Positions 32,907-53,077 of a DNA stretch of 64,000 bases are shown here, piece after piece. Source of the stretch: Patescibacteria group bacterium. GTDB lineage: Bacteria; Patescibacteriota; Patescibacteriia; UBA1558; UBA10009. The stretch is from the NCBI GenBank assembly GCA_041662565.1, contig JBAZSE010000002.1:91244-155243 (forward strand), in the 5' to 3' direction. Made by a program: the position numbers and the translations under genes. Below the pieces are notes generated by a model. It was given only the letters and a program-made list of their open reading frames with translations, had not been told where the DNA came from and did no database searches. The stretch's first letter is position 1, and the number at the start of each line of letters is the position of its first letter.

Positions 32907-33782
32907 TTAATCAAGCGGACTTTTAATACCACTAAAGCTATTGGCCACCTGAACATAACCCTCGGTGGTTTTTAAATTAACATGCCCTAACAGTTTTTGA
33001 ATAACCCTGATATCCGTGCCATTTTGCAAAAGATGCGTAGCAAAAGAATGCCTTAAAGAATGAATCCCCGCTTTTTTATTGATGTTGGCACAAACCAGGG
33101 CTTGATTAAAAATTTTTTGCGCCGATCTGGAAGTTAAATGACTCCTATTTTCCGCTCCATTATACAAATACTTTTGTTCCGCTGGCAATGTTGGCAAATA
33201 CTGATTTAATAGTTCTGTCGAATGATGGCTTAATAAAGTTACCCTATCTTTTGCGCCCTTACCCGACTTCACCATAATTTTATTTTGTCTCAAATCCAGA
33301 TGCTCAATCTTTAAACAAACCGCTTCCGAAACCCTTAAACCCGAACCATACATTATGGATAGTAACAATTTATGTTTAAGATTGTCTGTTAGCTCCAGCA
33401 ATTTGATTATTTCCTCTTTAGATAAAACAGTTGGCAAATATTTTTCCTTAGTTGGGCGAGTAATATTAAAAAACAGCTTCCGTTTAAGAATCTGTTGAAA
33501 ATAAAACTTTAAAGCCGAAATTGTTAAATTTAATGAAGTATTGGATTGCCCCTGTGCCTTAAGGTAAAGAAGATAATTTTTAACATCCTGCGTTGTTGCT
33601 TCTTTAGCTGACTTACCAATATAAACCAGAAATCTCCGGTTAATACTTAAATACGCTTCTATTGTTCGTTTGGAAAAACCCCTAATGATCAGCTCTTGAG
33701 CTAAAGTTGCCAATGGGTTTACTTTTTGAATGTTTGGCTTATAATAGGAGGATAAGCCAACCTCATTAAAACCGCTTTTCAT
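32907..33782 (-). CDS. tyrosine site-specific recombinase; candidate integron integrase (IntI-like), divergent from cassette array
   Basis: catalytic residues in GLRVSEA (R), HSLRHSFAT (H-x-x-R), LLGH (H), EGYVQV (Y); position and orientation relative to attC array. Confidence 0.6.
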   Translation of the reverse strand: MKSGFNEVGLSSYYKPNIQKVNPLATLAQELIIRGFSKRTIEAYLSINRRFLVYIGKSAKEATTQDVKNYLLYLKAQGQSNTSLNLTISALKFYFQQILKRKLFFNITRPTKEKYLPTVLSKEEIIKLLELTDNLKHKLLLSIMYGSGLRVSEAVCLKIEHLDLRQNKIMVKSGKGAKDRVTLLSHHSTELLNQYLPTLPAEQKYLYNGAENRSHLTSRSAQKIFNQALVCANINKKAGIHSLRHSFATHLLQNGTDIRVIQKLLGHVNLKTTEGYVQVANSFSGIKSPLD

Positions 33783-33865
33783 AAGGTTTTATGATTACTT
33801 ATTAGTTCCCCAATCTTGGCTTATTTAAAGCAAAAAGTCAACACTTCGCCTATCCAGTGTTGTAC
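33783..33865 (+). other. attI-like region; first cassette junction G|TTGTAC at ~33859/33860
   Basis: ccagtGTTGTACgaaat resembles cassette junctions cacGTTRRRYgaaat; the matching GTACAAC R'' lies at 34693. Confidence 0.5.
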
Positions 33866-33922
33866 GAAATAAATTTTTATATAAAATCCTACTTAGGGCG
33901 AATTCTCTTCTAAAACTTACTA

Positions 33923-34681
33923 ATGAACATGACTAAATTTATGGAAAAATATCCAACAAATATTCCCTTAGAACAAACTACGACAGAAAAACCTTTTGAA
34001 ACTTCCTTAACGGAAGAACAAAAGGAAACCGAAAGAAAAACAGAAGCTTTAAAATGGTTCGTTGACCAGGCGTTTCATAAACCAAAGATAAACGAATCAA
34101 CTAACTTTGAACAACTATCGAAATGGTGTGAATTTGTTTTAAACCATCTTTTAAAATCCAAAGAAGGGTATAACCGAGCAAATGGATGCCCGACTTATTT
34201 AGCTAGTTTTGAATACATTGGATCTCAAATCTCTGACTCTGACTCGGAACAAATAGATAACATATTAATGGAAATTAAAAAAACAATAAACGAAAACAAT
34301 GAGTTAAAGGAATGGCTCATTAAAGCTTCCAATCCAAAAAACATGGATGACATCTTAGTTAAACGTAATCTTTTCTTTGATAATATAAGTTTCTACAATC
34401 CTGCCACCTCAGCAAGGATATATCATCCAAGTGGATTAAAAAAAATAACTGAAAATGTATTTGAATTAGAAGAAAATATAAGTATTGACGAAATGTATGA
34501 ATCTTACCTAGGTTACTTAACAAGAAGTATAGAATTCGCCCTAAGTAAAGGTTCGAAACCTGAAGACGATGCTGGTTCCGCCAATGGACTAAAGAGATAT
34601 CTTAGTGTTTATGAAAAAATGACAGGAAAACCATTTAATGAATCTAGTGTTAAAAGTCAAGATGATAATACAAAAATTTAA
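33923..34681 (+). CDS. cassette 1 hypothetical protein
   Basis: 252 aa ORF. Confidence 0.5.
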   Translation: MNMTKFMEKYPTNIPLEQTTTEKPFETSLTEEQKETERKTEALKWFVDQAFHKPKINESTNFEQLSKWCEFVLNHLLKSKEGYNRANGCPTYLASFEYIGSQISDSDSEQIDNILMEIKKTINENNELKEWLIKASNPKNMDDILVKRNLFFDNISFYNPATSARIYHPSGLKKITENVFELEENISIDEMYESYLGYLTRSIEFALSKGSKPEDDAGSANGLKRYLSVYEKMTGKPFNESSVKSQDDNTKI

Positions 34682-34692
34682 AAATTTATATC

Positions 34693-34836
34693 GTACAACA
34701 CCCCATATGCGGTTCCGCGCCTTGCTAGGCGCTTCACCCAAATTGCTTGTCCGCTTAGGCGGTTAGCTCGGCTATCGCCTCGCGATTATACCGCCACGCG
34801 GCCTGCGCAACTTCGCATATGGTGGCACGTTATATG
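34693..34836 (+). repeat. attC site 1 (R'' GTACAAC ... R' GTTATAT)
   Basis: ccatatgcg / cgcatatgg inner repeats; crossover G|TT at ~34830. Confidence 0.7.
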
Positions 34837-34868
34837 AAATATTTAATTTTATTTTTAATCACAAAACT

Positions 34869-35375
34869 ATGATACCAGGCTGGTTAATTGCAATTCTTAC
34901 GTTTCCAGGAATTATTGCTCATGAGTTTGGGCACATGTTTTTTTGTAAACAATTTAATGTCAAAATCCATAAAGTTTGCTATTTTAGATTTGGAAACCCG
35001 GCTGGCTATGTAATACATGATGACCCTAATAACTTTAAACAATCTTTTTTTATTGACGTAGGCCCATTTATTGTCAGTAATATATTAGCTATTGTTGCCT
35101 TTATTTTCTCTGCCTCCCTTATGAATAGTATAGAAAGCGCGGGAATATTCTTTAGCTGGCTTGGTATTTCTTTTGCGATGAATTCTTTTCCTAGTAAAGG
35201 TGATGCAAAAGTTCTATGGGCCGTTACAAAAAAACATTCTGAAAAAGATAGTTTTCTTAAACTTATTGGGTATCCTTTTGCAATTATAATCTACATTGCA
35301 AATTTATTAAGTTTTATTTGGTTTGATTTAATTTGGGCAATTGGATTATATACATTAGTTAATAGTATAATATAA
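34869..35375 (+). CDS. membrane HExxH zinc-metallopeptidase-like protein (DUF3267-like)
   Basis: AHEFGHMFF motif in first TM helix, 4-5 TM segments. Confidence 0.45.
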   Translation: MIPGWLIAILTFPGIIAHEFGHMFFCKQFNVKIHKVCYFRFGNPAGYVIHDDPNNFKQSFFIDVGPFIVSNILAIVAFIFSASLMNSIESAGIFFSWLGISFAMNSFPSKGDAKVLWAVTKKHSEKDSFLKLIGYPFAIIIYIANLLSFIWFDLIWAIGLYTLVNSII

Positions 35376-35395
35376 AAAATAAAATTAAATACATC

Positions 35396-35971
35396 ATATA
35401 ACACAGGATTGCCGGTTCATAAACTAAATAAAACTTAATAATATGGAAAACCAACCGTATGATCCAGTTGGACACATTAAAATACTAGCTTCTGACTTTA
35501 AAAAAAGTTACTCTTTTTACAAGGATATTTTTGAGGCCTTAAATTACAAACAGGTCTCCAATAAAGAAAATAGTGCTGGTTGGGCTAAAAATGGATATGG
35601 TATATTATTAGGGCAAGCAAAAATCATTGATTTTCCATATAAATATGGGATGCCTGGAATTCATCATATTTGCTTAAAAGCAGAGTCAACTGATAAAGTA
35701 GATGAATTATACAATCTAGCAGTTAAAAAAGAGGTTCATATTTATGAACCACCTCAAAAATATCCTAATTATACCGATAAGTATTATGCTGTATTTTTCG
35801 CTGACCCAGATGGAATGAAAATGGAAATAGCTTATTATTAAGTTTTCTTTAGTTTATTCACCCAAATTGCTCGTTCCCCCTCGTCGCTACGGTGCTAGGC
35901 CTCCGGCCAATTTTAGCACCTTCGCTCGCTCGGGGTCACTTCGCAACTTCGGCAATCCACGCACGTTGTGC
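35396..35971 (+). repeat. split attC site 2: 5' arm (R'' ATATAAC + AGGATTGCCG) and 3' arm (CGGCAATCC + R' GTTGTGC) separated by the VOC ORF
   Basis: L'' aggattgccg at ~35404-35413 is the reverse complement of cggcaatcc at ~35952-35960; 3' arm begins ttcacccaaattgct as in intact attCs. Confidence 0.55.
35443..35841 (+). CDS. VOC/glyoxalase-bleomycin-resistance-fold protein (copy 1)
   Basis: 132 aa; near-identical paralogue at 49242-49640 including 45 nt upstream. Confidence 0.5.
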   Translation: MENQPYDPVGHIKILASDFKKSYSFYKDIFEALNYKQVSNKENSAGWAKNGYGILLGQAKIIDFPYKYGMPGIHHICLKAESTDKVDELYNLAVKKEVHIYEPPQKYPNYTDKYYAVFFADPDGMKMEIAYY

Positions 35972-36004
35972 GAAATAAAATTTTTTTCAGCCTAAAACAT
36001 ACAT

Positions 36005-36487
36005 ATGACAATAATTAAAAAGGCAAAAATCAATGATGCCGCAAATATTGCAAAAATGGCAGTAGCATTATTAAAATACCATGCAAATTTTGATCCATAT
36101 TTTGCCCCCATTAATGACGCAGAAAATATTTATGCTAAGTATTTTAAAAAGTGTATTTACTCTCCAACAAAGCAATTACTGGTGGCAGAATGTGACGGGA
36201 AGTTAGCCGGCTACGCTTTAATTGAAATTACTTCTAGACCCCCTGTTTTCAAAGTAAAAAATATGGGGTTAGTCAATGATATTTTTGTGGTGGCTAAGTT
36301 TCGTAGAAAAGGTGTGGGAAAAGAACTTTTTATCGGTATGCTGGATTGGATTAAAAGTAAAAAACCAGGATATAAATCACTAGACTATATAGAACTATCA
36401 GTAAATATAAAAGACATTATTAGCCAAAAAGCGTGGGCAAAGTATGGATTCAAAGAATATATAAGCAAACAAAGAATGAAGATATAA
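36005..36487 (+). CDS. GNAT-family N-acetyltransferase
   Basis: VAKFRRKGVGKELF acetyl-CoA binding motif A. Confidence 0.65.
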   Translation: MTIIKKAKINDAANIAKMAVALLKYHANFDPYFAPINDAENIYAKYFKKCIYSPTKQLLVAECDGKLAGYALIEITSRPPVFKVKNMGLVNDIFVVAKFRRKGVGKELFIGMLDWIKSKKPGYKSLDYIELSVNIKDIISQKAWAKYGFKEYISKQRMKI

Positions 36488-36512
36488 AACCGGCTGAAAA
36501 AATTTTACATCG

Positions 36513-37035
36513 CACAACACAGGATTGCCGATTCGCAAGGCGAAAAATCTCATTATGTATGAACGAATATACTAAATACATAGGTCAAATAGTTAAGGTT
36601 ATTATGGATAGGCCAATGGGTACTACTCATCCTAGAATCCCAGAAATTTACTATACTCTAAACTATGGTTATATTCCTGATACAATGGCCCCTGATGGTG
36701 AAGAGATAGATGCATATATATTGGGTATTTCTGAACCACTATCTGAATTTACTGGAGAATGTATTGCAGTAATTCATAGATTAAACGATAATGATGATAA
36801 GCTGATAGTTGTGCCAAAAGGGATTACCTTTACTGATGAGCAAATTATAACCTTAACTAACTTTCAGGAAAAATATTTTAAAAGCGAGATTATCAGGAAC
36901 TAAGTTATTTTTTCGCCTTGCTCATCCAAATTGCTCGTTCCCCCTCGTCGCTACGGTGCTAGGCCTCCGGCCAATTTTAGCACCTTCGCTCGCTCGGGGT
37001 CACTTCGCAACTTCGGCAATCCACGCACGTTAGGC
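36513..37035 (+). repeat. split attC site 3: R'' GCACAAC + AGGATTGCCG ... ORF ... CGGCAATCC + R' GTTAGGC
   Basis: R'' complements cassette start TTGTGC; arms complementary across a 345-nt ORF. Confidence 0.55.
36559..36903 (+). CDS. inorganic-pyrophosphatase-like protein (short, N-terminally reduced), encoded inside split attC
   Basis: YTLNYGYIPDTMAPDGEEIDAYILG and DNDDKLIVVP resemble family I PPase motifs. Confidence 0.35.
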   Translation: MNEYTKYIGQIVKVIMDRPMGTTHPRIPEIYYTLNYGYIPDTMAPDGEEIDAYILGISEPLSEFTGECIAVIHRLNDNDDKLIVVPKGITFTDEQIITLTNFQEKYFKSEIIRN

Positions 37036-37106
37036 GTAATTCCATTTCAAGAAAGATAATTTTTGTTATTTTTTGGGAAAAGAAAAAGGAGGGCAGATAC
37101 ACAGAT

Positions 37107-37418
37107 CTACCCTCCATTGATTTGATACTTTCGCTTTCTTGGGATTCTTACTCTAAACAAAGGCTTTTTATATAGTGGCTCTTTATATAGAGAAACAAAA
37201 GCAATAACTCCTACCACTGGACTAGCAACCATCCCTATAATCAATACAATATTGTCAAATAGAGAAGGTTCCATAGACGGCCCATTGTAACCAAGGGTAT
37301 GTAAGTTATTGACTAAAACTATTGCACCGCAAGTTATAACAGGCAAAAGTGCGGCTACAATAGCTCCAACGCAAGATCTTATAACTCTTTTCATCTCTCC
37401 CTCATAAAATTTTGCCAC
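37107..37418 (-). CDS. reverse-oriented cassette ORF: small membrane protein with own promoter
   Basis: minus-strand TTGACA-17-TATTAT at ~37448-37476 and GAGGGAG Shine-Dalgarno. Confidence 0.45.
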   Translation of the reverse strand: MAKFYEGEMKRVIRSCVGAIVAALLPVITCGAIVLVNNLHTLGYNGPSMEPSLFDNIVLIIGMVASPVVGVIAFVSLYKEPLYKKPLFRVRIPRKRKYQINGG

Positions 37419-37623
37419 TAAAGGAGTGACACCTTATAAATGAACCATTTAATAAATTATAATAGCATGGTATTTCTATTCTGTCAATCTATGCCACTTC
37501 GTTTTTTACTAAATTTAGCTAATATTAGCCAAAAATAACAAAAATTATTAAAAAATACATTGTAAAATCAAGGTTTTTCAATTATTAAGAGATTATGGTA
37601 GGATTATTGGGAAATGGAACACC

Positions 37624-37830
37624 GCCTAACACCGCGTATGCGGCTTTAGCTTCCGCCTCTCTAACTAGCATTGATATTTCTTAACAAAACTGCTTAAATT
37701 AGATTAAGCAGTTTTAGTTTTTAATACAGAACGTGCGGCGTAAGCTAAAGCGTACATTGGCGGGTGGTTCCCCGCCTGTCGGCGGGATATTTTACCACCC
37801 GCCAACGTCGCATACGCACGCACGTTAGGC
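37624..37830 (+). repeat. attC site 4 (long type; R'' GCCTAAC ... R' GTTAGGC) with internal hairpin ctgcttaa-attagat-ttaagcag
   Basis: ccgcgtatgcg / cgcatacgcacg inner repeats. Confidence 0.7.
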
Positions 37831-37869
37831 GTAATTAATTTTAAATTTAAACATTATTATACTAAATAC

Positions 37870-38751
37870 ATGGGAATAGAAAAATACACTTTCACTGAAA
37901 AAAATAATTTATTTGAAAAAGGAGAAGTAGATCCTGATTTTGAAATACAAAAAACAACAGTTGAAGATGCCTTAAGTAGAGCTATTTATGTTGGGGAAGG
38001 ATACGCTAGCGAAAGCCTGCTCAAAGAAAGACCAGGTTATTATGCTAGCTACCAGTCGAATCACGGAATCGACCGAGACCCGGAGTCAGGCAAAATTATT
38101 CCAGGATCTTTCATGAGAAAAAGTATTAAATTAGAAGGTTACTGTTGGCTCGTTGTTGATATAGATGAATATTTTGCAGAATTCGAAAAATCAATTACTG
38201 ACCCAAGTAGAATTTTTGAACTTGCTGAAAAAACCCATCCTTCATTATTAAAACTTATTCGAGCAAGAGGGTTCTTAAAACAAGAAGATTCCATAGAACA
38301 GAGAAAAGAAGATCTTATTACAAATTTAATTGGCATGGAAAATAAAAATAATCTAGCAATAACTTTTGCATATGAGGGTACGGATGAGAACGCGGAAAAA
38401 CTATTTAATGATTTATTTTCAAATAGAGATAAGAAAATAGATGAGGAGAGGCAAATAACTGAAAGTTTAGTAAGTAATGATTCAGAAGTTCAAATCGTAT
38501 TTAATCAAAAAGAGGGACGGGCTGATTTTAAGTCAGTATTTATGGATAACGATAGCGGTATTGGTAGATTTCGTTTTTGGCTACCAGAAGGATTATCAAA
38601 AATAGGAATTGAGCATCCAGAAAGATTTAAAAAAATTTTAGATGATATTAAGTTACTAATTGATAAATTAAAAGAAAATAAGCAAGTTTCACAAATCCAT
38701 ATAAGTCTTGGGACTGGAGTTTTATCTCCATTTTGGAAAAGAAATGAATAA
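37870..38751 (+). CDS. cassette hypothetical protein
   Basis: 293 aa ORF. Confidence 0.5.
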   Translation: MGIEKYTFTEKNNLFEKGEVDPDFEIQKTTVEDALSRAIYVGEGYASESLLKERPGYYASYQSNHGIDRDPESGKIIPGSFMRKSIKLEGYCWLVVDIDEYFAEFEKSITDPSRIFELAEKTHPSLLKLIRARGFLKQEDSIEQRKEDLITNLIGMENKNNLAITFAYEGTDENAEKLFNDLFSNRDKKIDEERQITESLVSNDSEVQIVFNQKEGRADFKSVFMDNDSGIGRFRFWLPEGLSKIGIEHPERFKKILDDIKLLIDKLKENKQVSQIHISLGTGVLSPFWKRNE

Positions 38752-38771
38752 TAAAATTGAAAATTAACACC

Positions 38772-38907
38772 GCCTAACACCCCATATGCGGTTCCGCCCG
38801 CCTGCTGTCGGGCTTCACCCAAATTACTCGTTCGTTCGGGGGTCGGCTCCGCCGATATTTTACCCCCTCACTCACTTCGCAACTTCGCATATGGTGGCAC
38901 GTTAGGT
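38772..38907 (+). repeat. attC site 5 (short type; R'' GCCTAAC ... R' GTTAGGT)
   Basis: ccatatgcg / cgcatatgg. Confidence 0.7.
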
Positions 38908-39064
38908 GAAATAAATTTTTCTTTTAGGGGCAAGTTGAACGATAATACTTTTAAAATAACGGATAAAATTTTGCTTTTTCTTTTTTATTTTAGGGGGATA
39001 TAGGTGTTTTTGCCCCCGACAAAGCGGGGTCAAAAACGATTTATAATAATTAAATACAAAATAT

Positions 39065-39814
39065 ATGAGATTATTCCTAGATGAAACTATATGGAAAACA
39101 AAAAGAGGTTTTACTTTTGATAAAGCTGCTAGCTATTTAGCCATAGGAATTCATGGGGGTCAAGATTTTTTTACATTACCCGTAGGAAGCATACCTGTTT
39201 ACGCCCCTTGCGATGGTGAACTAATAACATTCCCTGGGTTTTCTAAATCAGCTGGTTGGTGGGGTGTATACAGATTCCAATGTAATAATGCTACTTACAG
39301 TTTAAAAATCCTACACATGTACAAAGAACTTAAAGCTGGTAAATACAAAGAAGGTGATATTCTAGGATATTGCGGAGGAACAGGGCTAGCCGTAACCGGA
39401 AAATACGGAACATCATATATAGGAGAATCGCATGAGGAACAAACTTCAGACAGAGCCGTCCCTCATCTACACGCAGAACTTCATATTGGAGAATATAAGC
39501 ATGACACAAACAAAAATAAACTACTAGCACAACAACGCTTAATTGATCCGGTCAAAACCTTTGAAAAATGGCTAAGCGAAACATTAACAACTCAAAATAA
39601 TATGACTTTCTATAAAGAAAAAGATAAATCATCGGTATACATCAAAGGCGCGGATAACATTTACTACCCTATTATAACAGGTAAACATTTCTTAACTTTA
39701 TTTGGCGACTGGAAAGACAATAAAATAAACGAAGTTGACTCCCTGGAACCAAAATCTGACATATATTTTGGGTTATTTAAATCACAAGACGATGGAAAAT
39801 ACGACATTGCATAA
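39065..39814 (+). CDS. M23-family (LytM/lysostaphin-like) metallopeptidase domain protein
   Basis: HGGQD (HxxxD), GSIPVYAPCDGELI, PHLHAELH (HxH) motifs. Confidence 0.6.
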   Translation: MRLFLDETIWKTKRGFTFDKAASYLAIGIHGGQDFFTLPVGSIPVYAPCDGELITFPGFSKSAGWWGVYRFQCNNATYSLKILHMYKELKAGKYKEGDILGYCGGTGLAVTGKYGTSYIGESHEEQTSDRAVPHLHAELHIGEYKHDTNKNKLLAQQRLIDPVKTFEKWLSETLTTQNNMTFYKEKDKSSVYIKGADNIYYPIITGKHFLTLFGDWKDNKINEVDSLEPKSDIYFGLFKSQDDGKYDIA

Positions 39815-39829
39815 AAATAAATTAATTCT

Positions 39830-45083: not shown

Positions 45084-45088
45084 ACCAA

Positions 45089-45132: not shown

Positions 45133-45157
45133 AAAAGCAGAAATTGTCCGATACATC

Positions 45158-45480: not shown

Positions 45481-45759
45481 TCAAAGGCAATGACTTTGCA
45501 TAAGTTCGCCCAATGCATGAAAGGCTACCTCGGATTGATCACCGAGTGGTATGTCGGTTGGGAAATCCCCTGGTTCTAATGGACAAACGCCATGTTCTTC
45601 CATTATAGCTTGGTTGAGTGCGATCTTGGCATCAAACAACTTTTGATCGTCGTCTGTTATGTCAACATTTGCCTCAAATTTCCAAAGCATTTCTACGGCA
45701 TTCTGCAATGTTGCCATCTGAATTTTTCTCTTGAATACGTTTGGTTCACCATGAATCAA
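45481..45759 (-). CDS. reverse-oriented cassette ORF, hypothetical protein with own promoter
   Basis: minus-strand TTGACA-17-TATTAT at ~45770-45806 immediately upstream of ATG. Confidence 0.4.
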   Translation of the reverse strand: MIHGEPNVFKRKIQMATLQNAVEMLWKFEANVDITDDDQKLFDAKIALNQAIMEEHGVCPLEPGDFPTDIPLGDQSEVAFHALGELMQSHCL

Positions 45760-45887
45760 ACAATATATAATAGCATATTATATAAAACCTGTCAAGCTTT
45801 TTAATAAAAAATACTTAAGTATAGCTAAAATTAGCCAAAAAATCCCAAAAGAGCTTAAAAATAAGGTAATTTGTTTCGTAAAACATC

Positions 45888-46094
45888 ACCTAACACCGCG
45901 TATGCGGCTTTAGCTTCCGCCTCTAAGTTCAAGGTTGATATTTCTTAACAAAACTGCTTAAATTAGATTAAGCGGTTTTAGTTCTGACTAAGAACGTGCG
46001 GCGTAAGCTAAAGGCCTACATTGGCGGGTGGTTCCCCGCCTGTCGGCGGGATATTATACCACCCGCCAACGTCGCATACGCACGCACGTTATAT
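45888..46094 (+). repeat. attC site 9 (long type; R'' ACCTAAC ... R' GTTATAT)
   Basis: as site 4. Confidence 0.7.
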
Positions 46095-46165
46095 GCCATA
46101 TTGCTCTTTGACAAGGTGTTTTTAAGAAGTGCACGAACAACAAACTAATTCATACGGAGGATGAA

Positions 46166-46429
46166 GTGAAAAACTTCTTCAACAAAATCAGCATACTCTG
46201 GCATAAGCTTAAGTTTGAGGAAAACTGGCTTAAGTTTGAGGAAAAAATTGGCTTTCTTCTAACGATTAAGCTGGTTTATGTATTAATCATCATTGGAATG
46301 ATTTATTTATGTGCTCCAGAACCCTATTCACATTATGCCCTTTGGTGTTGCTGGAGAATCATTCTCGCCGTGCTATTATACGAGCTGATTACACTTCTGC
46401 TTCAGCGTAGATGCACTAATTATAAGTAG
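46166..46429 (+). CDS. small membrane protein flanked by 20-bp inverted repeats
   Basis: 87 aa; IR aaggtgtttttaagaagtgca (46108-46127) / tgcacttcttaaaaacactt (46476-46495). Confidence 0.4.
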   Translation: MKNFFNKISILWHKLKFEENWLKFEEKIGFLLTIKLVYVLIIIGMIYLCAPEPYSHYALWCCWRIILAVLLYELITLLLQRRCTNYK

Positions 46430-46566
46430 CACGACGCAATTAACAGCAGGAAGAACACCACATGTGTTCTTCCTGCACTTCTTAAAAACACTTTGAAAGA
46501 TAATACTGAATTCAATAAATCTAATCAATTAAAAAGATTGTTTAAAATCAACGAGAGCAATACAGC

Positions 46567-46756
46567 ATATAACACCCCATATGCGGTTCCCCCGCCTACG
46601 CTTTCAGCTTCAGCGGGTTCACCCAAATTTTAATACTTTTCTTGCGGTGGCGCTCCCACCTACGCTCCTCGTCAGGCTCGGAGCTACGGCGGGCAAGCCG
46701 CGCAAATTATACCGCAATAAAAGTATTAAAACTTCGCATATGGTGGCACGTTAGCT
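46567..46756 (+). repeat. attC site 10 (R'' ATATAAC ... R' GTTAGCT)
   Basis: ccatatgcg / cgcatatgg. Confidence 0.7.
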
Positions 46757-46793
46757 GAAATTTTGTTTGCTTTTCATATAACTCAACATTAAT

Positions 46794-47240
46794 ATGTCAG
46801 AAAAAGAAAGGTTTAGACCATTCGCCGCCGCCTATCTCATACTAATTAAAGACGGGCAAGTTTTACTTTCTAAAAGACATAATACCGGATACCTAGATGG
46901 TAATTACGGCTTAATGTCCGGTCATTTTGATGGCGGTGAGACAGCTAAGCAATGTATTATTCGTGAAGCGAAAGAAGAGGCTGATACTACCTTAAGTCCG
47001 GAAGATCTTGAGGTAATTCATGTTATGCATAGACTTGAATCTGACAGGGAATATTTTGATATTTATCTTAAGTCTGAAAAATGGATTGGAGATATTACTA
47101 TCATGGAACCAGATAAATGTAGCGAGCTTAAGTGGAATAACATTGACGATCTTCCGGACAATATGGTTCCAGAAGTAAAACTTGCCCTTGAAAATATTAA
47201 TAAGGGCATACACTATGGTGAATTTGGCTGGACGGCTTGA
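46794..47240 (+). CDS. NUDIX hydrolase
   Basis: Nudix box GHFDGGETAKQCIIREAKEEADT. Confidence 0.7.
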   Translation: MSEKERFRPFAAAYLILIKDGQVLLSKRHNTGYLDGNYGLMSGHFDGGETAKQCIIREAKEEADTTLSPEDLEVIHVMHRLESDREYFDIYLKSEKWIGDITIMEPDKCSELKWNNIDDLPDNMVPEVKLALENINKGIHYGEFGWTA

Positions 47241-47269
47241 TGATAATAACAAAAGGCAAACAAAACATC

Positions 47270-47405
47270 AGCTAACACCCCATATGCGGTTCCATGCCCT
47301 TGCTAGGGCACTCCACCCAAATTGCTCGTTCGTTCGGGGGTCGGCTCCGCCGATATTATACCCCCTCACTCACTTCGCAACTTCGCATATGGTGGCACGT
47401 TAGGT
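47270..47405 (+). repeat. attC site 11 (R'' AGCTAAC ... R' GTTAGGT)
   Basis: R'' complements cassette start TTAGCT. Confidence 0.7.
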
Positions 47406-47439
47406 GCCATATCGCTAACATTTCACGACGAGATCAATT

Positions 47440-47826
47440 ATGGAAAATTCAAAACTTTCACTTTCAATATTGCCGCAAAAATTAGCAATTTGCCGGTTGA
47501 ATAAAGACGCTCGGATTCCTTCTTGGATTGACAATGATGATTATTTCTCAATCACTAAAACTAATAATGAGCTTTCGATAGTTTGTTCTGAGATCAAGGT
47601 GCCTGACGATATTAAAGCTGAAAAAAATTGGCGAGCATTAAAAGTCAACGGATTTTTGGATTTTTCACTTACGGGAATCCTCGCTTCGCTAACTACTCCA
47701 TTAGCAGAAGCTAAAATCAGTATTTTTGCCATATCAACATATGATACTGATTATATACTTGTAAAAGACGATAAGCTCGATGAAGCCGTGAAAGTTTTGA
47801 GCACTTTTTGCAACATTCAAAAATAA
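47440..47826 (+). CDS. ACT-domain-like small-molecule-binding protein
   Basis: 128 aa; ACT_7-like pattern (low confidence). Confidence 0.35.
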   Translation: MENSKLSLSILPQKLAICRLNKDARIPSWIDNDDYFSITKTNNELSIVCSEIKVPDDIKAEKNWRALKVNGFLDFSLTGILASLTTPLAEAKISIFAISTYDTDYILVKDDKLDEAVKVLSTFCNIQK

Positions 47827-47847
47827 ATTCTGAAAACGCGATACAGC

Positions 47848-48508
47848 ACCTAACACAGCGTATCTGGTTTCGTGAAAAGAAAAAATAATAAATAATTTCA
47901 GATATTTAATTAGTTCTTTTAAAATTTTATTATAAAAAAGGCCGCCTCAACCTTCTTGGGTATATTGGCGGTAATGATGTCGGCTTGAGGTAGTATTCTA
48001 CAATTTCCGAAGATCCAGAGCGGGGTTCGGGAAAAAGCAGACCTTGCCACCAAATGCATCTACTGATATGTAGAGCACGTTTGTGCCCTTTGCCTTGCAG
48101 CCGGACCTTGCCGACAAAGGTGCCACGCCGACTACGGTAGCACTTCTGCGATAGGGATCTTCCACCCTATCGCCGGGCTCAAAACCGAATTGAGCGCAAG
48201 CCTCCTTAGAAGGATCAACCTTCAAAACCGTGCCATTAAAGGCAGTAACTTCCTGCAACATTAGCACTCCCTATACTTGTGAGATTGTGTCTTGTGTATT
48301 TTTACAATTCATGGAATAGTATCATTATTTTAAAATTATGTCAATGTTAGTATAAAATTTTAAAAGAACATTAATTAAGGTAAATTATTTATTATATTTC
48401 TCTTCACTTCACCCAAATTTTCTGTTTACTTCGGGGGTAGGCTCGCTACCGCTCGCAATTATACCCCCTCCGTTCACAGAAAACTTCAGATACGCACGCA
48501 CGTTAGGC
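47848..48508 (+). repeat. split attC site 12 (~660 bp): R'' ACCTAAC + CAGCGTATCTG ... embedded minus-strand ORF ... CAGATACGCACG + R' GTTAGGC
   Basis: cgtatctg at 5' arm is reverse complement of cagatacg in 3' arm; 3' arm starts ttcacccaaatttt. Confidence 0.5.
47998..48267 (-). CDS. hypothetical protein encoded on GC-rich insert inside attC 12
   Basis: 89 aa minus-strand ORF; GC content well above flanking DNA. Confidence 0.4.
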   Translation of the reverse strand: MLMLQEVTAFNGTVLKVDPSKEACAQFGFEPGDRVEDPYRRSATVVGVAPLSARSGCKAKGTNVLYISVDAFGGKVCFFPNPALDLRKL

Positions 48509-48528
48509 GAAATTTCGCCCCTACTCAT

Positions 48529-49179
48529 ATGATTACAGAACAAGTAAAACAACTGGGTAAAAAGGTATGCGAATACCTTAAAATGAATAACATTCTTGAA
48601 AAATCTGATTGTATTTTAGTTTTAGGCAGTTATGACGAAAGGGTGGCTATTAGAGCATCAGAATTATACTTACAAGGATTAGCACCTCTGCTTGTATTTT
48701 CAGGTGGATTTGGTAAATTTGCCAAAGATAATTGGGGCGAGGCCGAAGCTGATCATTTTGCAAAAATAGCTATTAAAATGGGTGTGCCTAAAAAGAACAT
48801 CTTGATTGAAAATCAATCAACTAATACCGGAGAGAATATATTATTTACACAAAACCTCTTTCACGAAAAAGGTTTAAACCTAAATAGCTTCATTATTGTT
48901 CAAAAGCCATATATGGAAAGAAGAAGCTATGCCACTTTTAAAAAATATTGGCCCGATAAAAAAGTTTTAGTAACCTCGCCCCAATTATCTTTTGAAGAAT
49001 ACCCGACAACTGGTATATCAATGGAAAGAGTAATTAATACTGCAGTTGGCGACCTACAAAGAGTAAAACTTTATTCTGAAAATGGGTATCAGATTTTTCA
49101 AGAAATATCTAAAGATGTTTGGGATGCTTATGAACAGTTAGTGGCTCTTGGATATAATAAACGTTTAATAAAAGAATAA
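48529..49179 (+). CDS. DUF218/YdcF-like (SanA/ElyC family) protein
   Basis: STNTGENI motif (cf. STNTYEN in YdcF). Confidence 0.5.
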   Translation: MITEQVKQLGKKVCEYLKMNNILEKSDCILVLGSYDERVAIRASELYLQGLAPLLVFSGGFGKFAKDNWGEAEADHFAKIAIKMGVPKKNILIENQSTNTGENILFTQNLFHEKGLNLNSFIIVQKPYMERRSYATFKKYWPDKKVLVTSPQLSFEEYPTTGISMERVINTAVGDLQRVKLYSENGYQIFQEISKDVWDAYEQLVALGYNKRLIKE

Positions 49180-49194
49180 TCGGGGCGAAACATC

Positions 49195-49760
49195 ACCTAA
49201 CACAGGATTGCCGGTTCATAAACTAAATAAAACTTAATAATATGGAAAATCAACCATATGATCCAGTTGGTCACATTAAAATATTAGCATCTGACTTTAA
49301 GAAAAATTATTCTTTTTACAAGGATATTTTTGAGGCCTTAGATTATAAACAAGTTTCCAATAAAGAAAATAGCGCTGGTTGGGCGAAAAATGGTTATAGT
49401 ATATTATTAGGGCAGGCTAAAATCATAGATTATCCATTTAAATATGGCATGCCTGGTATTCATCATATCTGCTTAAAGGCAGAGTCAACTGATAAAGTAG
49501 ATGAATTATATAATCTAGCAATTAAAAAAGAGGTTCATATATATGAACCGCCTAAAAAATATCCTAATTATACCAATAAGTATTACGCTGTATTTTTTGC
49601 TGACCCAGACGGAATGAAGATAGAAATAGCTTATTATTAAGTTTTCTTTAGCTTATTCACGCAAATTGCTCATTTCCCCTCGTCGCTACGGTGCTAGGCC
49701 TATCGGCCAATTTTAGCACTTCCGCTCAAGTAAAACTTCGCATATGGTGGCACGTTAGGT
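49195..49760 (+). repeat. split, chimeric attC site 13: 5' arm AGGATTGCCG-type, 3' arm short-type (cgcatatggtgg), enclosing VOC copy 2
   Basis: 5' arm and 45-nt leader identical to 35396-35442; 3' arm L' does not complement 5' L''. Confidence 0.5.
49242..49640 (+). CDS. VOC/glyoxalase-fold protein (copy 2)
   Basis: paralogue of 35443-35841 with only a few substitutions. Confidence 0.5.
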   Translation: MENQPYDPVGHIKILASDFKKNYSFYKDIFEALDYKQVSNKENSAGWAKNGYSILLGQAKIIDYPFKYGMPGIHHICLKAESTDKVDELYNLAIKKEVHIYEPPKKYPNYTNKYYAVFFADPDGMKIEIAYY

Positions 49761-50168
49761 GAAATCAAATTTTTCTCTATGAGAAAAGGACTATCTACAG
49801 ACAGTCCTTTTAAAATAATGGAGTAGCTGGAAACCAGCAATAATAATTGACAATTGGGAGTCCGACTACGCTCGGACTACACGCCTAAGCAAAATAGCTT
49901 TTGGGTCAATCCCTGCTAGATTTGAAATCCCAATCATCGACCATTGAACATAAGTTCAAATATTGCTGTCTAGCATGTTTCCAGCTACCACTTTTTATGC
50001 TAAACGAACGAATATAAAAAGATATTAAACTATATATAATTTATTGTCAATAGTATTAAAATTATAATAAATAAGTTTATTAATATAGAAAAATTTGACA
50101 TCACCTAACACCGCGTATGCAGTTAAATCAAATTTGCCTTATTTTTCAACTTTTGATAGTATAGCAGT

Positions 50169-50393
50169 ATGAAAAACTTAAACTTTACAGTATACATAGA
50201 AAGAGATGAGGATGGCGTATTTATTGGTTCCATCCCTACTATTCCCTCCTGTTATGCTCAAGGTAAGACCCAAGAGGATATGCTTAAAAATCTTAGGGAA
50301 GTTTTGCGTCTTTGTTTAAGGAATAATAAAAGAGATACTTTAGAAAATACTAAATTTGTAGGCATACAAAACCTAGAAGTTGCTTATGCCTAG
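50169..50393 (+). CDS. hicB: HicB-family antitoxin (UPF0150)
   Basis: YIERDEDGVFIGSIPTIPSCYAQGKTQEDMLKNLREVL matches HicB N-domain pattern. Confidence 0.6.
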   Translation: MKNLNFTVYIERDEDGVFIGSIPTIPSCYAQGKTQEDMLKNLREVLRLCLRNNKRDTLENTKFVGIQNLEVAYA

Positions 50394-50603
50394 ATTAATT
50401 CCAATTAAACCCAAGAAATTGATTAAAATCCTCTTGGGTTTTGGTTTTATAGAACGTGATGCCGAAGGGTCTCACGTCTTTTTTAAACACCAGATGGCAG
50501 AACAACAGTAATACCCATGCACGACGAAATAAGCAAGGGATTGTTAAAAAAGATACTCAACGATATTCAACTCTCAATAGAGGAATACGATAGATTAAGG
50601 TAA
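50386..50603 (+). pseudogene. hicA: hicA toxin gene disrupted by frameshift (two reading frames: MPRLIP...KHQMAEQQ* then IPMHDEISKGLLKKILNDIQLSIEEYDRLR*)
   Basis: both halves match HicA (GSH..F.H and IP.H..I..GLL..IL); frames shift near 50505-50515. Confidence 0.5.
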
Positions 50604-50796
50604 TAAGGCAAATTTTCTTTAACGTACATTGGCGTGTGGTTCCCCGCCTGCCGGCGGGATATTTTACCACCCGCCAACGTCGCATACGCCCGCACGTTAG
50701 GTGAAATAGCCAGAAATTTCTTTTTTATTTTTTAGATTTTTTGACAATTTATCGTAAAATAACATGGCTTGTGATATAATTTAAGTCGTCTAATTA

Positions 50797-51252
50797 TTGA
50801 CTGTAAATATTATGAAAAAAATTTATAAAAATATTGGCATTGGGTTGTTGGTAGCAAATATTTTTTTACTCGTAACTGGTAACTTTTTGAAATTTTTAAC
50901 AGCTCTAATTGTTCTTCCAAATTTTTATTCCTACTTATCGCAAATGATCTCAGTTAATGGACAATATAATGTAATCTTACTTTATTTGTTGATGTCATTA
51001 GATGCCTTACTGACATTTTGGGGAATTGTATTATCAATTATCCTAATTAAAAATAATCGTTATAATAAGCAGTTATTATGGTGGATATACTCATGGGTAG
51101 GAATAAAAATTTTATCCTTTATTTTATTTCTGCCATTAAAAATTTACGAGACTACGGATTTGGTGATAGCTGTACTTTTTTTTGTATTCCTAATCTATCA
51201 AGATAATAAATGGTCAAGGATCATAAAGAATAAATTGCCAAAAAATATATAA
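50797..51252 (+). CDS. cassette polytopic membrane protein
   Basis: 151 aa, 4 TM. Confidence 0.45.
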   Translation: MTVNIMKKIYKNIGIGLLVANIFLLVTGNFLKFLTALIVLPNFYSYLSQMISVNGQYNVILLYLLMSLDALLTFWGIVLSIILIKNNRYNKQLLWWIYSWVGIKILSFILFLPLKIYETTDLVIAVLFFVFLIYQDNKWSRIIKNKLPKNI

Positions 51253-51275
51253 AGGAAAAAATTTCTGTCTACATC

Positions 51276-51494
51276 CCCTATCACCGCGTATGCGGCTTTA
51301 GCTTCCGCCTACTTACTATTACATTGATATTTCATACTAAAGATGCTTAAATACAATTAAGTATCTTTTAGTTTATGGATAACGTGCGGCGTAAGCTAAA
51401 GGCCTACATTGTCAGGGAGTTTCGGGGGTGGCGCTCCGCGCATATTATACCCCCTCAACTCCCTGACAACGTCGCATACGCACGCACGTTAGGT
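51276..51494 (+). repeat. attC site 15 (long type, degenerate R'' CCCTATC; R' GTTAGGT)
   Basis: hairpin gcttaaatacaattaagt variant with compensatory changes. Confidence 0.6.
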
Positions 51495-51584
51495 GCCATT
51501 GCCTTAAAAGTGACTACTATTGTAAGATGTAAAGGTGATGGAAACATCTAAACTAAAAACTAATGTGCGAATATAGGCAACAGC

Positions 51585-52197
51585 ACCTAACACAGGATTG
51601 CCGATTCGCAAATTTAAATAAAATTATTTACCAACTAACCTAAGAATATGTCACAAACTATCAACATTAGTCAGCCGGTCGGTAATGAAAATTATTACGC
51701 TTCCAAAAAAAGAAAAATCATTGACTTTCTAATAGGATTATTTAGTAATTTTTTATCAATACCTTTATTTACATTCTTAGTTCTTTTATTAGGCACTGCA
51801 AGTAATATAGACATTTTTGACCAACATTTACATGATTGGGTTGGGCTAGAGGAAAAATCCTTTATATTCATAACAACGATCCTTATTACATTAGCAACTT
51901 TATTAACTGAATATTTAATAATAAAAAAGTTGAATAAAAAAAGAAAGTACATAACTAAAGGAATGATCATCCCTTTAGTATTATTAATCCTTATTATGCT
52001 CTACGCTTTACTTTATACCAAAATTAAGGGATTTAATTACATGTAATTTCTAAGATGTATTCAATAATTTTATTTAAATTCGCTCATCCAAATTGCTCGT
52101 TCCCCCTCGTCGCTACGGTGCTAGGCCTCTGGCCAATTTTAGCACCTTCGCTCGCTCGGGGTCACTTCGCAACTTCGGCAATCCACGCACGTTCGGT
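51585..52197 (+). repeat. split attC site 16: R'' ACCTAAC + AGGATTGCCG ... ORF ... CGGCAATCC + R' GTTCGGT
   Basis: arms complementary across 399-nt ORF. Confidence 0.55.
51648..52046 (+). CDS. membrane protein encoded inside split attC
   Basis: 132 aa, 3 TM. Confidence 0.45.
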   Translation: MSQTINISQPVGNENYYASKKRKIIDFLIGLFSNFLSIPLFTFLVLLLGTASNIDIFDQHLHDWVGLEEKSFIFITTILITLATLLTEYLIIKKLNKKRKYITKGMIIPLVLLILIMLYALLYTKIKGFNYM

Positions 52198-52272
52198 GCC
52201 ATATTTGGTAAAAAGTAGCCTTGAAAAATTCAAAAAAATGTGTTAATATACCCATATAAATAACCTATTTTC

Positions 52273-52431
52273 TATGAAAAATATCTCTATAACTACTGAA
52301 AAATTACACAAAGCAGTTGCTCAATCTTCCAAAATGGAAGGATTAAGTTTTAATGACGCTAAAAGGAATAAAAAGCTTATTCAAACCTTAAAATCTTATG
52401 GCAGAGCATTCGCGATATTACGTCAGCGATA
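52273..52431 (+). CDS. FicA/VbhA-like antitoxin (52 aa) with inhibitory S-x-x-x-E-G motif
   Basis: SSKMEG matches (S/T)xxxE(G/N); overlaps Fic gene start by ~35 nt. Confidence 0.45.
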
Positions 52432-53009
52432 ATGATGCCGGGGTTAGCAAAGGAATACTTAAAAACAAGCTTGGGATTAAAAGCAGAAAAAAGTTAAGTG
52501 AAGCCGAAACCCTGCTACTTACTGACACCTACACACATTTTTTTGAACTATTAAGAAAAGGCAAAATAAAATTTGACCTTTCTTTATTATTTTCTATTCA
52601 TGAATATTTCTTAAATCATCTCTACGACTGGGCAGGCAAAGTAAGAACAGTCAATATTTCAAAAGATGAGATGCTTTTTGTTCCAGTTAAATATATTGAT
52701 AAAGTTTTAGTAGAATTCAATAAACTTCTTACAACAACATCGCCAAAACAATCTAACCCTAATAGTGAAATTTCTCAAAAACTAGCAATCATTCATAATG
52801 AATTTAATGTCATTCATCCTTTTAGAGAGGGCAATGGCAGAACAATACGTTTATTTCTTGATTTAATTGCTGTAAGTGTAGGCAATGATCCGATTGACTG
52901 GAGTAAAACGCCAAATAAAGATTATCTCAAAGCCTGCGTTCAAGGCGTAAATGGTAATCACGAACCAATGGCAAAAATAATAAAGAAAGGCCTTAATAAA
53001 TCTGCTTAA
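52398..53009 (+). CDS. Fic-domain protein (class I FicT-like toxin)
   Basis: HPFREGNGRTIRLF Fic motif HPFx(D/E)GNGR. Confidence 0.7.
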   Translation: MAEHSRYYVSDNDAGVSKGILKNKLGIKSRKKLSEAETLLLTDTYTHFFELLRKGKIKFDLSLLFSIHEYFLNHLYDWAGKVRTVNISKDEMLFVPVKYIDKVLVEFNKLLTTTSPKQSNPNSEISQKLAIIHNEFNVIHPFREGNGRTIRLFLDLIAVSVGNDPIDWSKTPNKDYLKACVQGVNGNHEPMAKIIKKGLNKSA

Positions 53010-53063
53010 TAAAATCAAATTTTTCAATTATTGAAAGATCATGGTAAGATTTTAAATAGATGG

Positions 53064-53077
53064 AACACCGCCTAAAA
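53064..53077 (+). repeat. truncated attC remnant (R'' gcctaaa only) marking distal end of array
   Basis: preceding 35 nt resemble the tail before attC 4 (..atggtaRgatt..atggaacaccgcctaa). Confidence 0.4.

Follow-up and report, generated by a model that had tools for sequence, protein, structure and literature searches.

The stretch of DNA analysed here, called the window throughout, is 64,000 nucleotides long (contig JBAZSE010000002.1 of the Patescibacteria assembly GCA_041662565.1) and carries at 32907-33782, on the reverse strand, a gene for a tyrosine recombinase of 291 amino acids with SAM-like N-terminal and Phage_integrase domains (Pfam). Divergent from this gene lie an attachment site, attI, and an array of 17 gene cassettes at 33859-53075, split by 16 imperfect-palindrome sites of the form RYYYAAC...GTTRRRY (attC sites) and one truncated site; the array is about 19 kb long (region 33.8-53.1 kb) and its palindromes all have one orientation. 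We consider it likely that the locus is a functional, integron-like platform that exchanges cassettes as folded single-stranded DNA and is run by a relative of the integron integrase IntI without the I2 domain, and we infer recombination itself from the comparisons given below. A preliminary description of this DNA, made from the sequence alone, had reported about 17 attC-bounded cassettes over some 19 kb, and the repeats, boxes and inner inverted repeats were indeed found at the positions it gave, as was the divergent 291-residue recombinase upstream of the first junction, which stands 77 bp from the start codon (about 75 had been given).

On its 5' side each attC reads acatc-RYYYAAC (the R'' box), AC[C/A] and a 9-nt inner repeat (L''), and on its 3' side a complementary 9-nt repeat (L'), a 6-nt spacer NNGCAC and GTTRRRY-gaaat (the R' box). 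The inner repeats are of four types (CCATATGCG, GCGTATGCG, GGATTGCCG and GCGTATCTG; the types are lettered A to D below) and share one geometry, the spacer of every unit measuring 3 nt between R'' and L'' and 6 nt between L' and R'. The crossover G (G↓TT, arrows marking junctions) lies at 33859 in attI (GTTGTAC) and then at 34829, 35965, 37029, 37824, 38901, 43909, 44653, 45360, 46088, 46750, 47399, 48502, 49754, 50696, 51488 and 52191, and the R'' boxes start at 34693, 35396, 36512, 37624, 38772, 43680, 44512, 45158, 45888, 46567, 47270, 47848, 49195, 50103, 51276 and 51585. An arm-pairing scan at the fixed 3/6 geometry found no such unit in the rest of the 64 kb; only this geometry with 8-9 paired bases is specific, a permissive scan giving about 80 chance matches per strand. 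The motif GCACGTTRRRY was observed 9 times against 0.4 expected. An Rfam scan of the window returned one tRNA only and is uninformative here, as Rfam holds no attC family. The array ends in a truncated R'' box (GCCTAA, 53070-53075), cut at the AA↓C position, and the 56 nt up to this point (53020-53075) are 82% identical to 37574-37629, ahead of the attC of cassette 4. Directly 3' of the array end lie an unannotated membrane-like open reading frame (ORF) of 121 amino acids, tsaD and a tRNA.

The four variable bases of R'' are the reverse complement of the preceding junction, at which the same cassette starts, in 13 of the 16 units, whereas a match to the R' box of their own unit is seen in no more than 4; over 100,000 permutations the value of 13 of 16 was never reached (p<1e-5). 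Such a chain rule is the trace expected of a crossover between G and TT. The complementarity had earlier been claimed for every unit, which holds for those 13 and not for three others. The R'' box of cassette 6 is mismatched at 2 of 4 bases, that of cassette 15 is degenerate (CCCTATC) and the site of cassette 13 is chimeric. An alignment of 29 units from 7 loci, with each R'' joined to its preceding junction (TTRRRY), gave a reconstituted R helix with 96.4% pairing, in which 4 of 7 pairs showed compensatory changes, compared to 84.2% when R'' was set against the unit's own R' (unpaired cells at the variable positions then numbering 6, 10, 10 and 4). Pairing in the L helix reached 97%, and 7 of its 9 pairs showed compensatory changes, over at least four sequence types; this paired fraction is high partly by construction, because the units were chosen on L pairing, while the diversity of pair types is unaffected. 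Pairing is conserved rather than sequence, four L-box types coexisting in one array, and the covariation demands intrastrand pairing in the excised form. The rule also holds outside the window: it was confirmed in the related loci L081-L090, and 26 independent metagenome contigs, picked by an exact type-A 3' arm, gave 28 informative pairs of neighbours, of which 18 had an R'' matching the preceding R' and 1 an R'' matching its own R'. The AAC and GTT triplets, otherwise invariant, sometimes change together, as where R' GATAGAT is followed by R'' ACCTATC in the related locus L083 (+ strand, near 7891-8118 and 6234-6277); the attI junctions of L087 and L088 read G↓ATAGAC, and the CCCTATC unit at window position 51276 has no matching change.

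Ten of the sites are short (136-236 bp) and six, those of cassettes 2, 3, 12, 13, 14 and 16, measure 524-661 bp and hold a complete ORF between L'' and L'. The preliminary description had given 120-225 bp for the units, which suits the short ones, and had spoken of a complete integron-like system, correctly as regards the array, attI, the recombinase and the cassette-like cargo, but it missed the ORFs nested in these six sites. The nested genes are two VOC proteins, a pyrophosphatase-like protein, a HicB-like protein, a membrane protein of 132 amino acids and one reverse ORF, and cassettes 14 and 16 have no gene besides the nested one. No alternative 5' arm was found downstream of the nested ORFs. 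Sites of this kind were also seen in the related loci L081, L082, L083, L087 and L089, in each of the three units of L085, and in 9 of the 54 units from the metagenome contigs, and type-C arms carry differing nested genes. To our knowledge no canonical integron has a gene in an attC loop, but the mechanism would permit it because the loop is topologically equivalent to the rest of a single-stranded circle.

Folding the bottom strand in search of extrahelical bases had been proposed as a check. In minimum-energy folds the bottom strand was more stable than the top by 2-7 kcal/mol in 10 of 10 short units, and all three unpaired bases (GT and A, or equivalents) lay on the bottom-strand 5' arm, which bears the AA↓C cleavage point. 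This is the arm opposite to the canonical one, since canonical sites carry their extrahelical bases on the R''-L'' arm, which is 3' in the folded bottom strand, and three attC sites of a class 1 integron (L091) read for comparison have a 5-nt/6-nt spacer and an extra C in L'', on that R''-L'' arm. Canonical attC sites are about 57-141 bp long with a small variable terminal structure, a length to which the window's sites do not keep.

The R'' box appears to act as a second joint. A three-way alignment showed that cassette 13 follows the DUF218 cassette of a related locus (L116) as far as ...ACCTAAC↓AC and, from AAC↓ACAGGATTGCCGG onward, the VOC module of cassette 2, so that one VOC module follows two distinct outer genes, the joint falling within R''. 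In the attC thus formed in cassette 13, L'' (type C) and L' (type A) do not complement each other, and the site is probably immobile. Two examples suggest that, with no I2 to read the extrahelical bases, the enzyme may be less strand-selective and may use the top-strand AA↓C of R'' for exchange as well. Two further elements recur within attC bodies. A perfect hairpin, AAAACTGCTTAA-N6-TTAAGCAGTTTT, lies between an A-tract and a T-tract in type-B sites and one type-A site (37686-37715, ~45221-45250, ~45950-45979 and ~43741-43770) and looks like a bidirectional intrinsic terminator; and TTCACCCAAATTGCT is found in sites of different types (34732-34748, 35856-35872, 38813-38829, 44563-44579, 47311-47327 and 48407-48423) and also in L081, L083 and L116.

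The recombinase has the catalytic residues R150, K175, H241, R244, H267 and Y276, which are invariant in its family. Its best NCBIfam match is XerA_Arch (215.5 bits, cutoff 220), followed by IntI TIGR02249, matched in two pieces (193.5, cutoff 265), XerD (178.6, cutoff 329.6), XerC (177.9, cutoff 335), PRK15417 (129.6, cutoff 435) and XerS (66.6, cutoff 267), so that it falls below every curated IntI and Xer cutoff. The best solved-structure match, by sequence and by predicted fold, is the Vibrio cholerae integrase VchIntIA (2A3V). The alignment with it splits at the IntI-specific domain, query residues 187-211 facing residues 172-237, and an AlphaFold2 model (mean predicted local distance difference test, pLDDT, 83) matched 2a3v best in the PDB and archaeal XerA next, and showed no additional helix at 199-217. 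In the window protein the segment 176-222 has a length of 47 amino acids, and in about 60 others among 86 relatives one of 45-55, compared to 86-92 in IntI1 and 22 other canonical IntIs, with no intermediates among the 86. A search of genome contigs with the family alignment served this insertion test and the tree; the matches listed in it were at most 44% identical, and none of those listed was from the close clade.

The C-terminal sequence GIKSPLD (IKSPLD motif) recurs in IntI1, in VchIntIA and in almost every relative; E. coli XerC and XerD lack it. In a neighbour-joining tree the canonical IntIs were monophyletic (bootstrap 100), with the candidate phyla radiation (CPR) clade of the window protein outside them (support 83), and short relatives and canonical IntIs together stood apart from E. 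coli XerC/D (bootstrap 98). Sampling for the tree was biased to relatives of the query and included no XerA, XerH or XerS sequences, and because of this bias the recombinase is placed near IntI with the branching order not fixed. Classification by profile, the check suggested earlier, left the protein short of the IntI and all Xer cutoffs, and it is the 2A3V match, the IKSPLD motif and the tree that mark it as an IntI relative. Genes for a ribbon-helix-helix (RHH) antitoxin-like and a HigB-like toxin protein lie directly downstream of the recombinase gene (32337-32839, reverse strand), a pair kept in the window and L081/L082 (L081 11023-11528) and also present in L094 and L095.

The attI core (33837-33865, forward strand) consists of GTCAAC, an L-like element TTCGCCTAT, a 5-nt spacer CCAGT and the crossover box G↓TTGTAC; the junction (ccagtG↓TTGTAC) has no inner repeats and lies 77 nt from the recombinase start codon. 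GTCAA-N17/18-G↓TTRRRY-GAAAT stands upstream of all the orthologous recombinases and resembles the attC 3' arm, and the intergenic order is conserved: TGATTAAT, a palindrome TT[AG]GCT-N6-AGC[TC]AA, GTCAA, 17-18 nt and G↓TTRRRY-GAAAT. The palindrome (TTGGCT-N6-AAGCAA at 33816-33833 in the window, between the recombinase start and attI) keeps its position in the window, L081, L083, L085, L087, L088, L089 and L090, and its arms resemble the R-box consensus; it is possibly an accessory site, an operator or a dif-like double-stranded site of the recombinase. A candidate promoter resembling the integron cassette promoter Pc (TTTACT-16-TATAAT, 10 of 12 matches, 33718-33745, forward strand) lies inside the 5' end of the recombinase gene and points toward the array, and is no more than a candidate as the promoter scan was at chance level (20 sites compared to 18.3 expected in shuffled sequence).

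A protein identical to the recombinase is annotated from a Patescibacteria metagenome-assembled genome (MAG), and its closest relatives are from Komeilibacteria, Parcubacteria and Nomurabacteria. The host is a Komeilibacteria-like member of the Patescibacteria, which bears out the earlier suggestion of a CPR-like host. Orthologues with 55-69% identity (L081/82, L083/84, L085/86, L087, L089 and L090) all lie divergently beside such arrays of small genes, mostly with the same 3/6 geometry and partly with the same L types, the linkage being counted over every fetched locus with upstream sequence. In several lineages the recombinase sits in housekeeping neighbourhoods (ftsH/gyrA/ruvB, or S20/holA/polA), which suggests vertical inheritance like that of a sedentary chromosomal integron.

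Cassette replacement is seen at attI itself. Two loci from different samples (L081 and L082) have 0 mismatches over 1022 nt of gene and attI and over 10,000 nt of the other flank, and from GTTAGG↓ onward their arrays have only repeats in common. The first of the two junction types, G↓TTAGGT, goes with a first R'' of ACCTAAC and the second, G↓TTAGGC, with GCCTAAC, and as junction base and first R'' covary the variable box bases belong to the cassette. The junction beside the recombinase is therefore taken as attI and as the place where new cassettes enter, its position being conserved and the two strains diverging from the G↓TT box. Crossover at R'' with attI at the far end was considered and rejected, for L081 and L082 share the sequence from GTCAA to GTTAGG and diverge only after it. 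Cassettes are also re-used: the DUF218 cassette (cassette 13) is 87% identical in L116, where it stands behind a type-A attC while the window attC differs (termed type D in that comparison), with homology from G↓TT onward. Recurrence in other contexts was also seen for the Fic cassette and for several attC sites.

For many relatives the contig stops in the first attC or at 20-600 nt upstream of the recombinase gene (L004, L006, L010, L013, L026, L088 and L095), and such breaks near attI suggest that arrays differ between populations, or reflect the repeats. L013 and L026 share an attI-like ...CGTATAGRAAKGAGTTGTRCGACATA. A diversity-generating retroelement (DGR), with an RVT_1 reverse transcriptase, bAvd and a 134-nt repeat pair of 83% identity, comes first at attI in relatives (L085:7300-9900, where the repeats are at 7798-7931 and 8314-8447; L086; L087:5900-7400; L088:1-131), and L087 and L088, which are different genomes, have the same sequence after their unusual G↓ATAGAC junction. 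In a MAG labelled Firmicutes (HGW-Firmicutes-8; L015:1-5100) a short I2-less relative with 42% identity lies beside at least 4 units with inner repeats GGCTAAAC/GTTTAGCC and a 4/7 spacer geometry, and these units obey the chain complementarity (GTTAGAC then GTCTAAC; GTTATGT then ACATAAC). Possibly the system reaches beyond Patescibacteria; mis-binning of the contig is the other possibility. No array was found upstream of the short relatives from Spirochaetota (L001), Undinarchaeales (L002) and Woesearchaeota (L053), outside the CPR, the last two being the loci checked of three fetched from DPANN archaea, so that linkage to an array is not general to all I2-less relatives; L007 gave an ambiguous picture.

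The cassettes, all read on the forward strand, begin with cassette 1 (33860-34829), whose ORF at 33923-34681 (252 amino acids) has no family and no Pfam match; its type-A attC (34693-34835, 143 bp) has R'' GTACAAC to a cassette start of TTGTAC (start and R'' are given in this order below). Cassette 2 (34830-35965) has a DUF3267, zincin-like ORF (34869-35375) and a type-C attC (35396-35971, 576 bp, TTATAT/ATATAAC) with a nested glyoxalase/VOC ORF (35443-35841), and here L'' GGATTGCCG at 35406 pairs with L' CGGCAATCC before 35965. Cassette 3 (35966-37029) carries a GNAT ORF (36005-36487, Pfam) and a type-C attC (36512-37035, 524 bp, TTGTGC/GCACAAC) around the pyrophosphatase-like ORF (36559-36903). 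The ORF of cassette 4 (37030-37824) is reversed (37107-37418, reverse strand, 103 amino acids) and is followed by a type-B attC (37624-37830, 207 bp, TTAGGC/GCCTAAC); the region of this ORF (37088-37487, reverse strand) has its own near-consensus promoter-like site, TTGACA-17-TATTAT with a TG, and a terminator-like hairpin. Cassette 5 (37825-38901) encodes 293 amino acids of no family (37870-38751) and has a type-A attC (38772-38907, 136 bp, TTAGGC/GCCTAAC, own R' GTTAGGT).

Cassette 6 (38902-43909, 5 kb) is a defence island inside the array. It encodes a weakly M23-like protein, an OLD-family ATPase/nuclease (PADLOC Old, 1e-61), an Eco47II-like restriction endonuclease and a C5 DNA methylase with a MerR-type helix-turn-helix (Pfam, PADLOC). 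Its type-A attC (43680-43915, 236 bp) has R'' GGCTAAC to a start of TTAGGT, with 2 of 4 bases matching, and because of this mismatch it may be a fusion of cassettes. Cassette 7 (43910-44653) has an ORF of 173 amino acids without family (43965-44486) and a type-A attC (44512-44659, 148 bp, TTATAT/ATATAAC), and cassette 8 (44654-45360) an ORF of 106 amino acids (44763-45083) and a type-B attC (45158-45366, 209 bp, TTAGGT/ACCTAAC). Only small ORFs, at 45592-45804 (forward) and 45481-45759 (reverse), occur in cassette 9 (45361-46088), with a type-B attC (45888-46094, 207 bp, TTAGGT/ACCTAAC, own R' GTTATAT). Cassette 10 (46089-46750) follows with an ORF of 87 amino acids (46166-46429) and a type-A attC (46567-46756, 190 bp, TTATAT/ATATAAC), and cassette 11 (46751-47399) with a NUDIX ORF (46794-47240, Pfam) and a type-A attC (47270-47405, 136 bp, TTAGCT/AGCTAAC).

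An ACT-domain ORF (47440-47826) opens cassette 12 (47400-48502), whose type-D attC (47848-48508, 661 bp, TTAGGT/ACCTAAC) encloses the reverse ORF (47998-48267, reverse strand) between L'' GCGTATCTG and the L' with which it pairs, CAGATACGC. Cassette 13 (48503-49754) has the DUF218 ORF (48529-49179) and the chimeric attC (49195-49760) with a nested VOC ORF (49242-49640). In cassette 14 (49755-50696) there is no outer ORF, and the type-B attC (50103-50702, 600 bp, TTAGGT/ACCTAAC) holds the HicB-like ORF (50169-50393, Pfam), for which no ORF of a HicA partner was found. Cassette 15 (50697-51488) encodes 151 amino acids (50797-51252) and has a type-B attC (51276-51494, 219 bp) with the degenerate R''. 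The sole ORF of cassette 16 (51489-52191), at 51648-52046 (132 amino acids), is nested in a type-C attC (51585-52197, 613 bp, TTAGGT/ACCTAAC), and a homologue with 41% identity lies inside a type-C attC of L081. Cassette 17 (52192-53075) carries a Fic ORF (52398-53009, Pfam Fic; PADLOC candidate PDC-S04), and its attC is truncated after GCCTAA. The cargo families are DUF3267, VOC (twice), GNAT, pyrophosphatase-like, NUDIX, ACT, DUF218, HicB-like and Fic, with several ORFs having no family; Pfam agreed with the GNAT, NUDIX, VOC, Fic and DUF218 proteins reported at first sight, while the HicAB pair reported with them is reduced to its HicB-like member.

Taken together, these features are consistent with a recombinase that would be an IntI relative which never had, or has lost, the I2 "additional domain", and which would bind a double-stranded attI (L-like TTCGCCTAT, spacer, TTGTAC) and a folded single-stranded attC in which R'' would pair with R' and L'' with L'. 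Circular cassettes would be inserted and excised by exchanging a single strand at G↓TT. This would most likely be the bottom strand, cut at AA↓C, the point that reads G↓TT in the top strand. The junction would be resolved by replication, as in integrons and in the XerCD integration of CTX phage, and successive insertions would have built the array of 17 cassettes, which is presumably still active in the window genome. For CTX phage a folded single-stranded DNA hairpin undergoes exchange of one strand by XerCD, and replication resolves the product. The term integron-like, used in the preliminary description, has the right strength for such a system, as architecture and related loci agree, yet the recombinase has no I2 domain and is below the IntI cutoff and the attC geometry is different. 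By the field's definition the array is not a canonical integron, from which it departs in the integrase domain, the position of the unpaired bases and the length of the sites.

Several observations weigh against this interpretation. The roughly 40-residue IntI-specific (I2) domain is absent from the recombinase, and the W157 of VchIntIA, which MacDonald and colleagues are said to have counted in 2006 among the residues holding the extrahelical G, aligns with a K. With three imperfect links in a chain of 16 and a chimeric attC, the array may in part be frozen. Poor folding is to be expected of loops of 400-600 nt. The 64 kb examined belong to a genome of 809 kb, which leaves room for a canonical IntI elsewhere or for a housekeeping role of this enzyme, and the contig is a short-read metagenome assembly, in which repeat-rich arrays are prone to mis-ordering, although the chain complementarity argues that the repeats were joined correctly. 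A second sample with exactly the window recombinase (L095) is identical and ends inside the first attC, giving no data on variation. On the domain itself, Messier and Roy (2001, as cited in PMC9668308) are credited there with finding the IntI-specific domain necessary for IntI activity, and Escudero et al. (PMC4792948) describe I2 as unique to integrases, accommodating the extrahelical bases and blocking second-strand exchange.

The serious alternative is that the enzyme is a housekeeping Xer dimer resolvase with a dif-like site close to its gene (compare XerS/difSL), the cassettes being single-stranded DNA parasites like integrative mobile elements exploiting Xer (IMEX), as CTX phage is. Its XerA score just below the cutoff, the missing I2 domain, the conserved housekeeping neighbourhoods, the Xer-like palindrome with a 6-bp spacer between gene and attI and the fact that no second Xer was seen within the 64-kb window would all suit such an enzyme. 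We nevertheless regard it as unlikely. The protein groups with IntI rather than with E. coli XerC/D (bootstrap 98), has the IntI-type SPLD motif and is below every Xer cutoff; GC skew does not switch at the locus, as it would at a terminus, but is negative on both flanks (left -0.10 to -0.14, right -0.02 to -0.07), which over 64 kb only is moderate evidence; and the array consists not of phages or islands but of one-gene cassettes that have attC-type sites and no promoter. Mechanistically this explanation overlaps with that of an I2-less IntI relative, and it differs only in whether the enzyme also resolves dimers.

It is improbable that the array is an orphan, similar to a cluster of attC sites lacking an integrase (CALIN), served in trans by a canonical IntI elsewhere or simply a dead relic, with an unrelated recombinase beside it. 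The fraction of the genome examined and the degeneracy of some units leave room for this, but in 7 of 7 independent orthologous loci with upstream sequence the array begins about 77 nt from the recombinase start at a conserved attI, a linkage over 55-77% protein divergence that is not expected of an unrelated neighbour, and cassettes have been replaced at that very spot between two otherwise identical strains.

More improbable still is inversion of an enclosed gene at inverted double-stranded sites, or a two-strand exchange at double-stranded L'-spacer-R', for which one could cite the six units that enclose an ORF between inverted arms (reversed in unit 12) and weak NCBIfam matches to tyrosine-type invertases (1e-10). 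Against it, R'' complements the preceding junction and its own R' in 4 of 16 units only, the arm spacers are unequal (3 and 6 nt), ten units have nothing to invert, and classical exchange is blocked because the attI (CCAGT) and attC (NNGCAC) spacers differ. Ordinary dispersed palindromes or terminators between genes, of the repetitive extragenic palindromic (REP) or miniature inverted-repeat transposable element (MITE) kind, would account for imperfect palindromes after ORFs and the terminator-like hairpin of type-B units, but are effectively refuted by the single block of one orientation beside a recombinase with none elsewhere in the 64 kb, the chain complementarity, the covariation and the strain-level cassette differences, in agreement with the preliminary description, which had set the pattern apart from REP and MITE repeats.

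If the I2-less integrase reading is followed further, it may be, as we suggest tentatively, that Patescibacteria, perhaps with neighbours such as the L015 lineage, hold an integron lineage whose integrase never acquired I2, a "proto-integron" or a parallel integron. If so, folded single-stranded DNA cassette recombination predates I2 or evolved without it; strand choice and geometry are set differently, with unpaired bases on the cleaved arm, R' and R'' both acting as joints and genes in the attC loop; and experiments could then test how integrons originated and what I2 and the extrahelical bases really do. A clade-wide and evidently active platform with a domain-less IntI relative contradicts the rule that defines integrons by the IntI-specific domain, and offers a natural system for asking how recombination of single-stranded DNA hairpins arose from Xer-like enzymes, which bears on the origin of integrons. 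For the ultra-small CPR genomes it means that about 2.4% of the DNA (19 kb of 809 kb) is a swappable gene bank, whose content (restriction-modification, OLD nuclease, Fic and toxin-antitoxin parts, and a DGR in relatives) is relevant to the adaptation and defence of episymbionts. Genes in attC loops and joints at R'' suggest a route for the assembly of cassettes, the formation of which is an open question in the field. A 2021 review (PMC8618304) lists 14 integron-bearing bacterial phyla, Patescibacteria not among them, and no description of integrons in Patescibacteria or CPR was found in the full text of the literature searched, which does not prove that none exists.

Among known systems the array is close to the sedentary chromosomal integrons, such as the Vibrio cholerae superintegron, with which it shares a divergent recombinase beside attI, the G↓TT crossover, the RYYYAAC/GTTRRRY boxes, an R'' complementary to the start of its own cassette, L''/L' boxes conserved in pairing, content that varies between strains, mostly single co-oriented promoterless cassettes, and cargo of the toxin-antitoxin, defence, GNAT, VOC and NUDIX kind. 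Unlike V. cholerae and canonical integrons, its recombinase has no I2 (47 compared to 86-92 amino acids), is below the TIGR02249 cutoff and has K for the W157 of VchIntIA, and its sites have a 3x6 spacer with the extra bases on the L'-R' arm (5x6 with the extra base in L'' in the canonical L091), are 136-661 bp long, hold ORFs in the loop and have an R'' that seemingly is a second joint.

The archaeal integrons (Ghaly et al. 2022, PMC9668308) are similar in being arrays outside the classical bacterial hosts, found in MAGs that include small-genome lineages; 539 attC sites and 6 IntIs were reported there in 75 genomes, many arrays having no detectable IntI, and the archaeal attC sites fold like bacterial ones. 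Those archaeal IntIs carry the IntI-specific additional domain, which the window recombinase does not.

With Xer systems acting on single-stranded substrates or named beside them (XerCD/CTX, XerA, XerS/difSL and XerH/difH) the enzyme shares its Xer size without I2 and, as with XerS, a gene beside its site, and XerA is its best curated-family match and second-best fold match. Unlike them it is below the cutoffs, lacks a switch in GC skew and serves attC-type sites with chain complementarity, its cargo being a long series of small cassettes with one gene each. A match to the IntI-specific profile is obligatory in IntegronFinder (Cury et al. 2016, PMC4889954), which would at best report the window array as a CALIN, so that standard tools would miss or mislabel such arrays. 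Also close are the CALIN and intI_Cterm-less cases of the same study, PF00589 recombinases without the IntI-specific region beside attC-like sites. Those domain-less recombinases had fewer than 3 attC sites, were scattered among phage integrases and were judged not to be IntI (PMC4889954); unlike them, the system described here has 16-17 sites, a clade-wide linkage of recombinase and array, and turnover of cassettes at attI.

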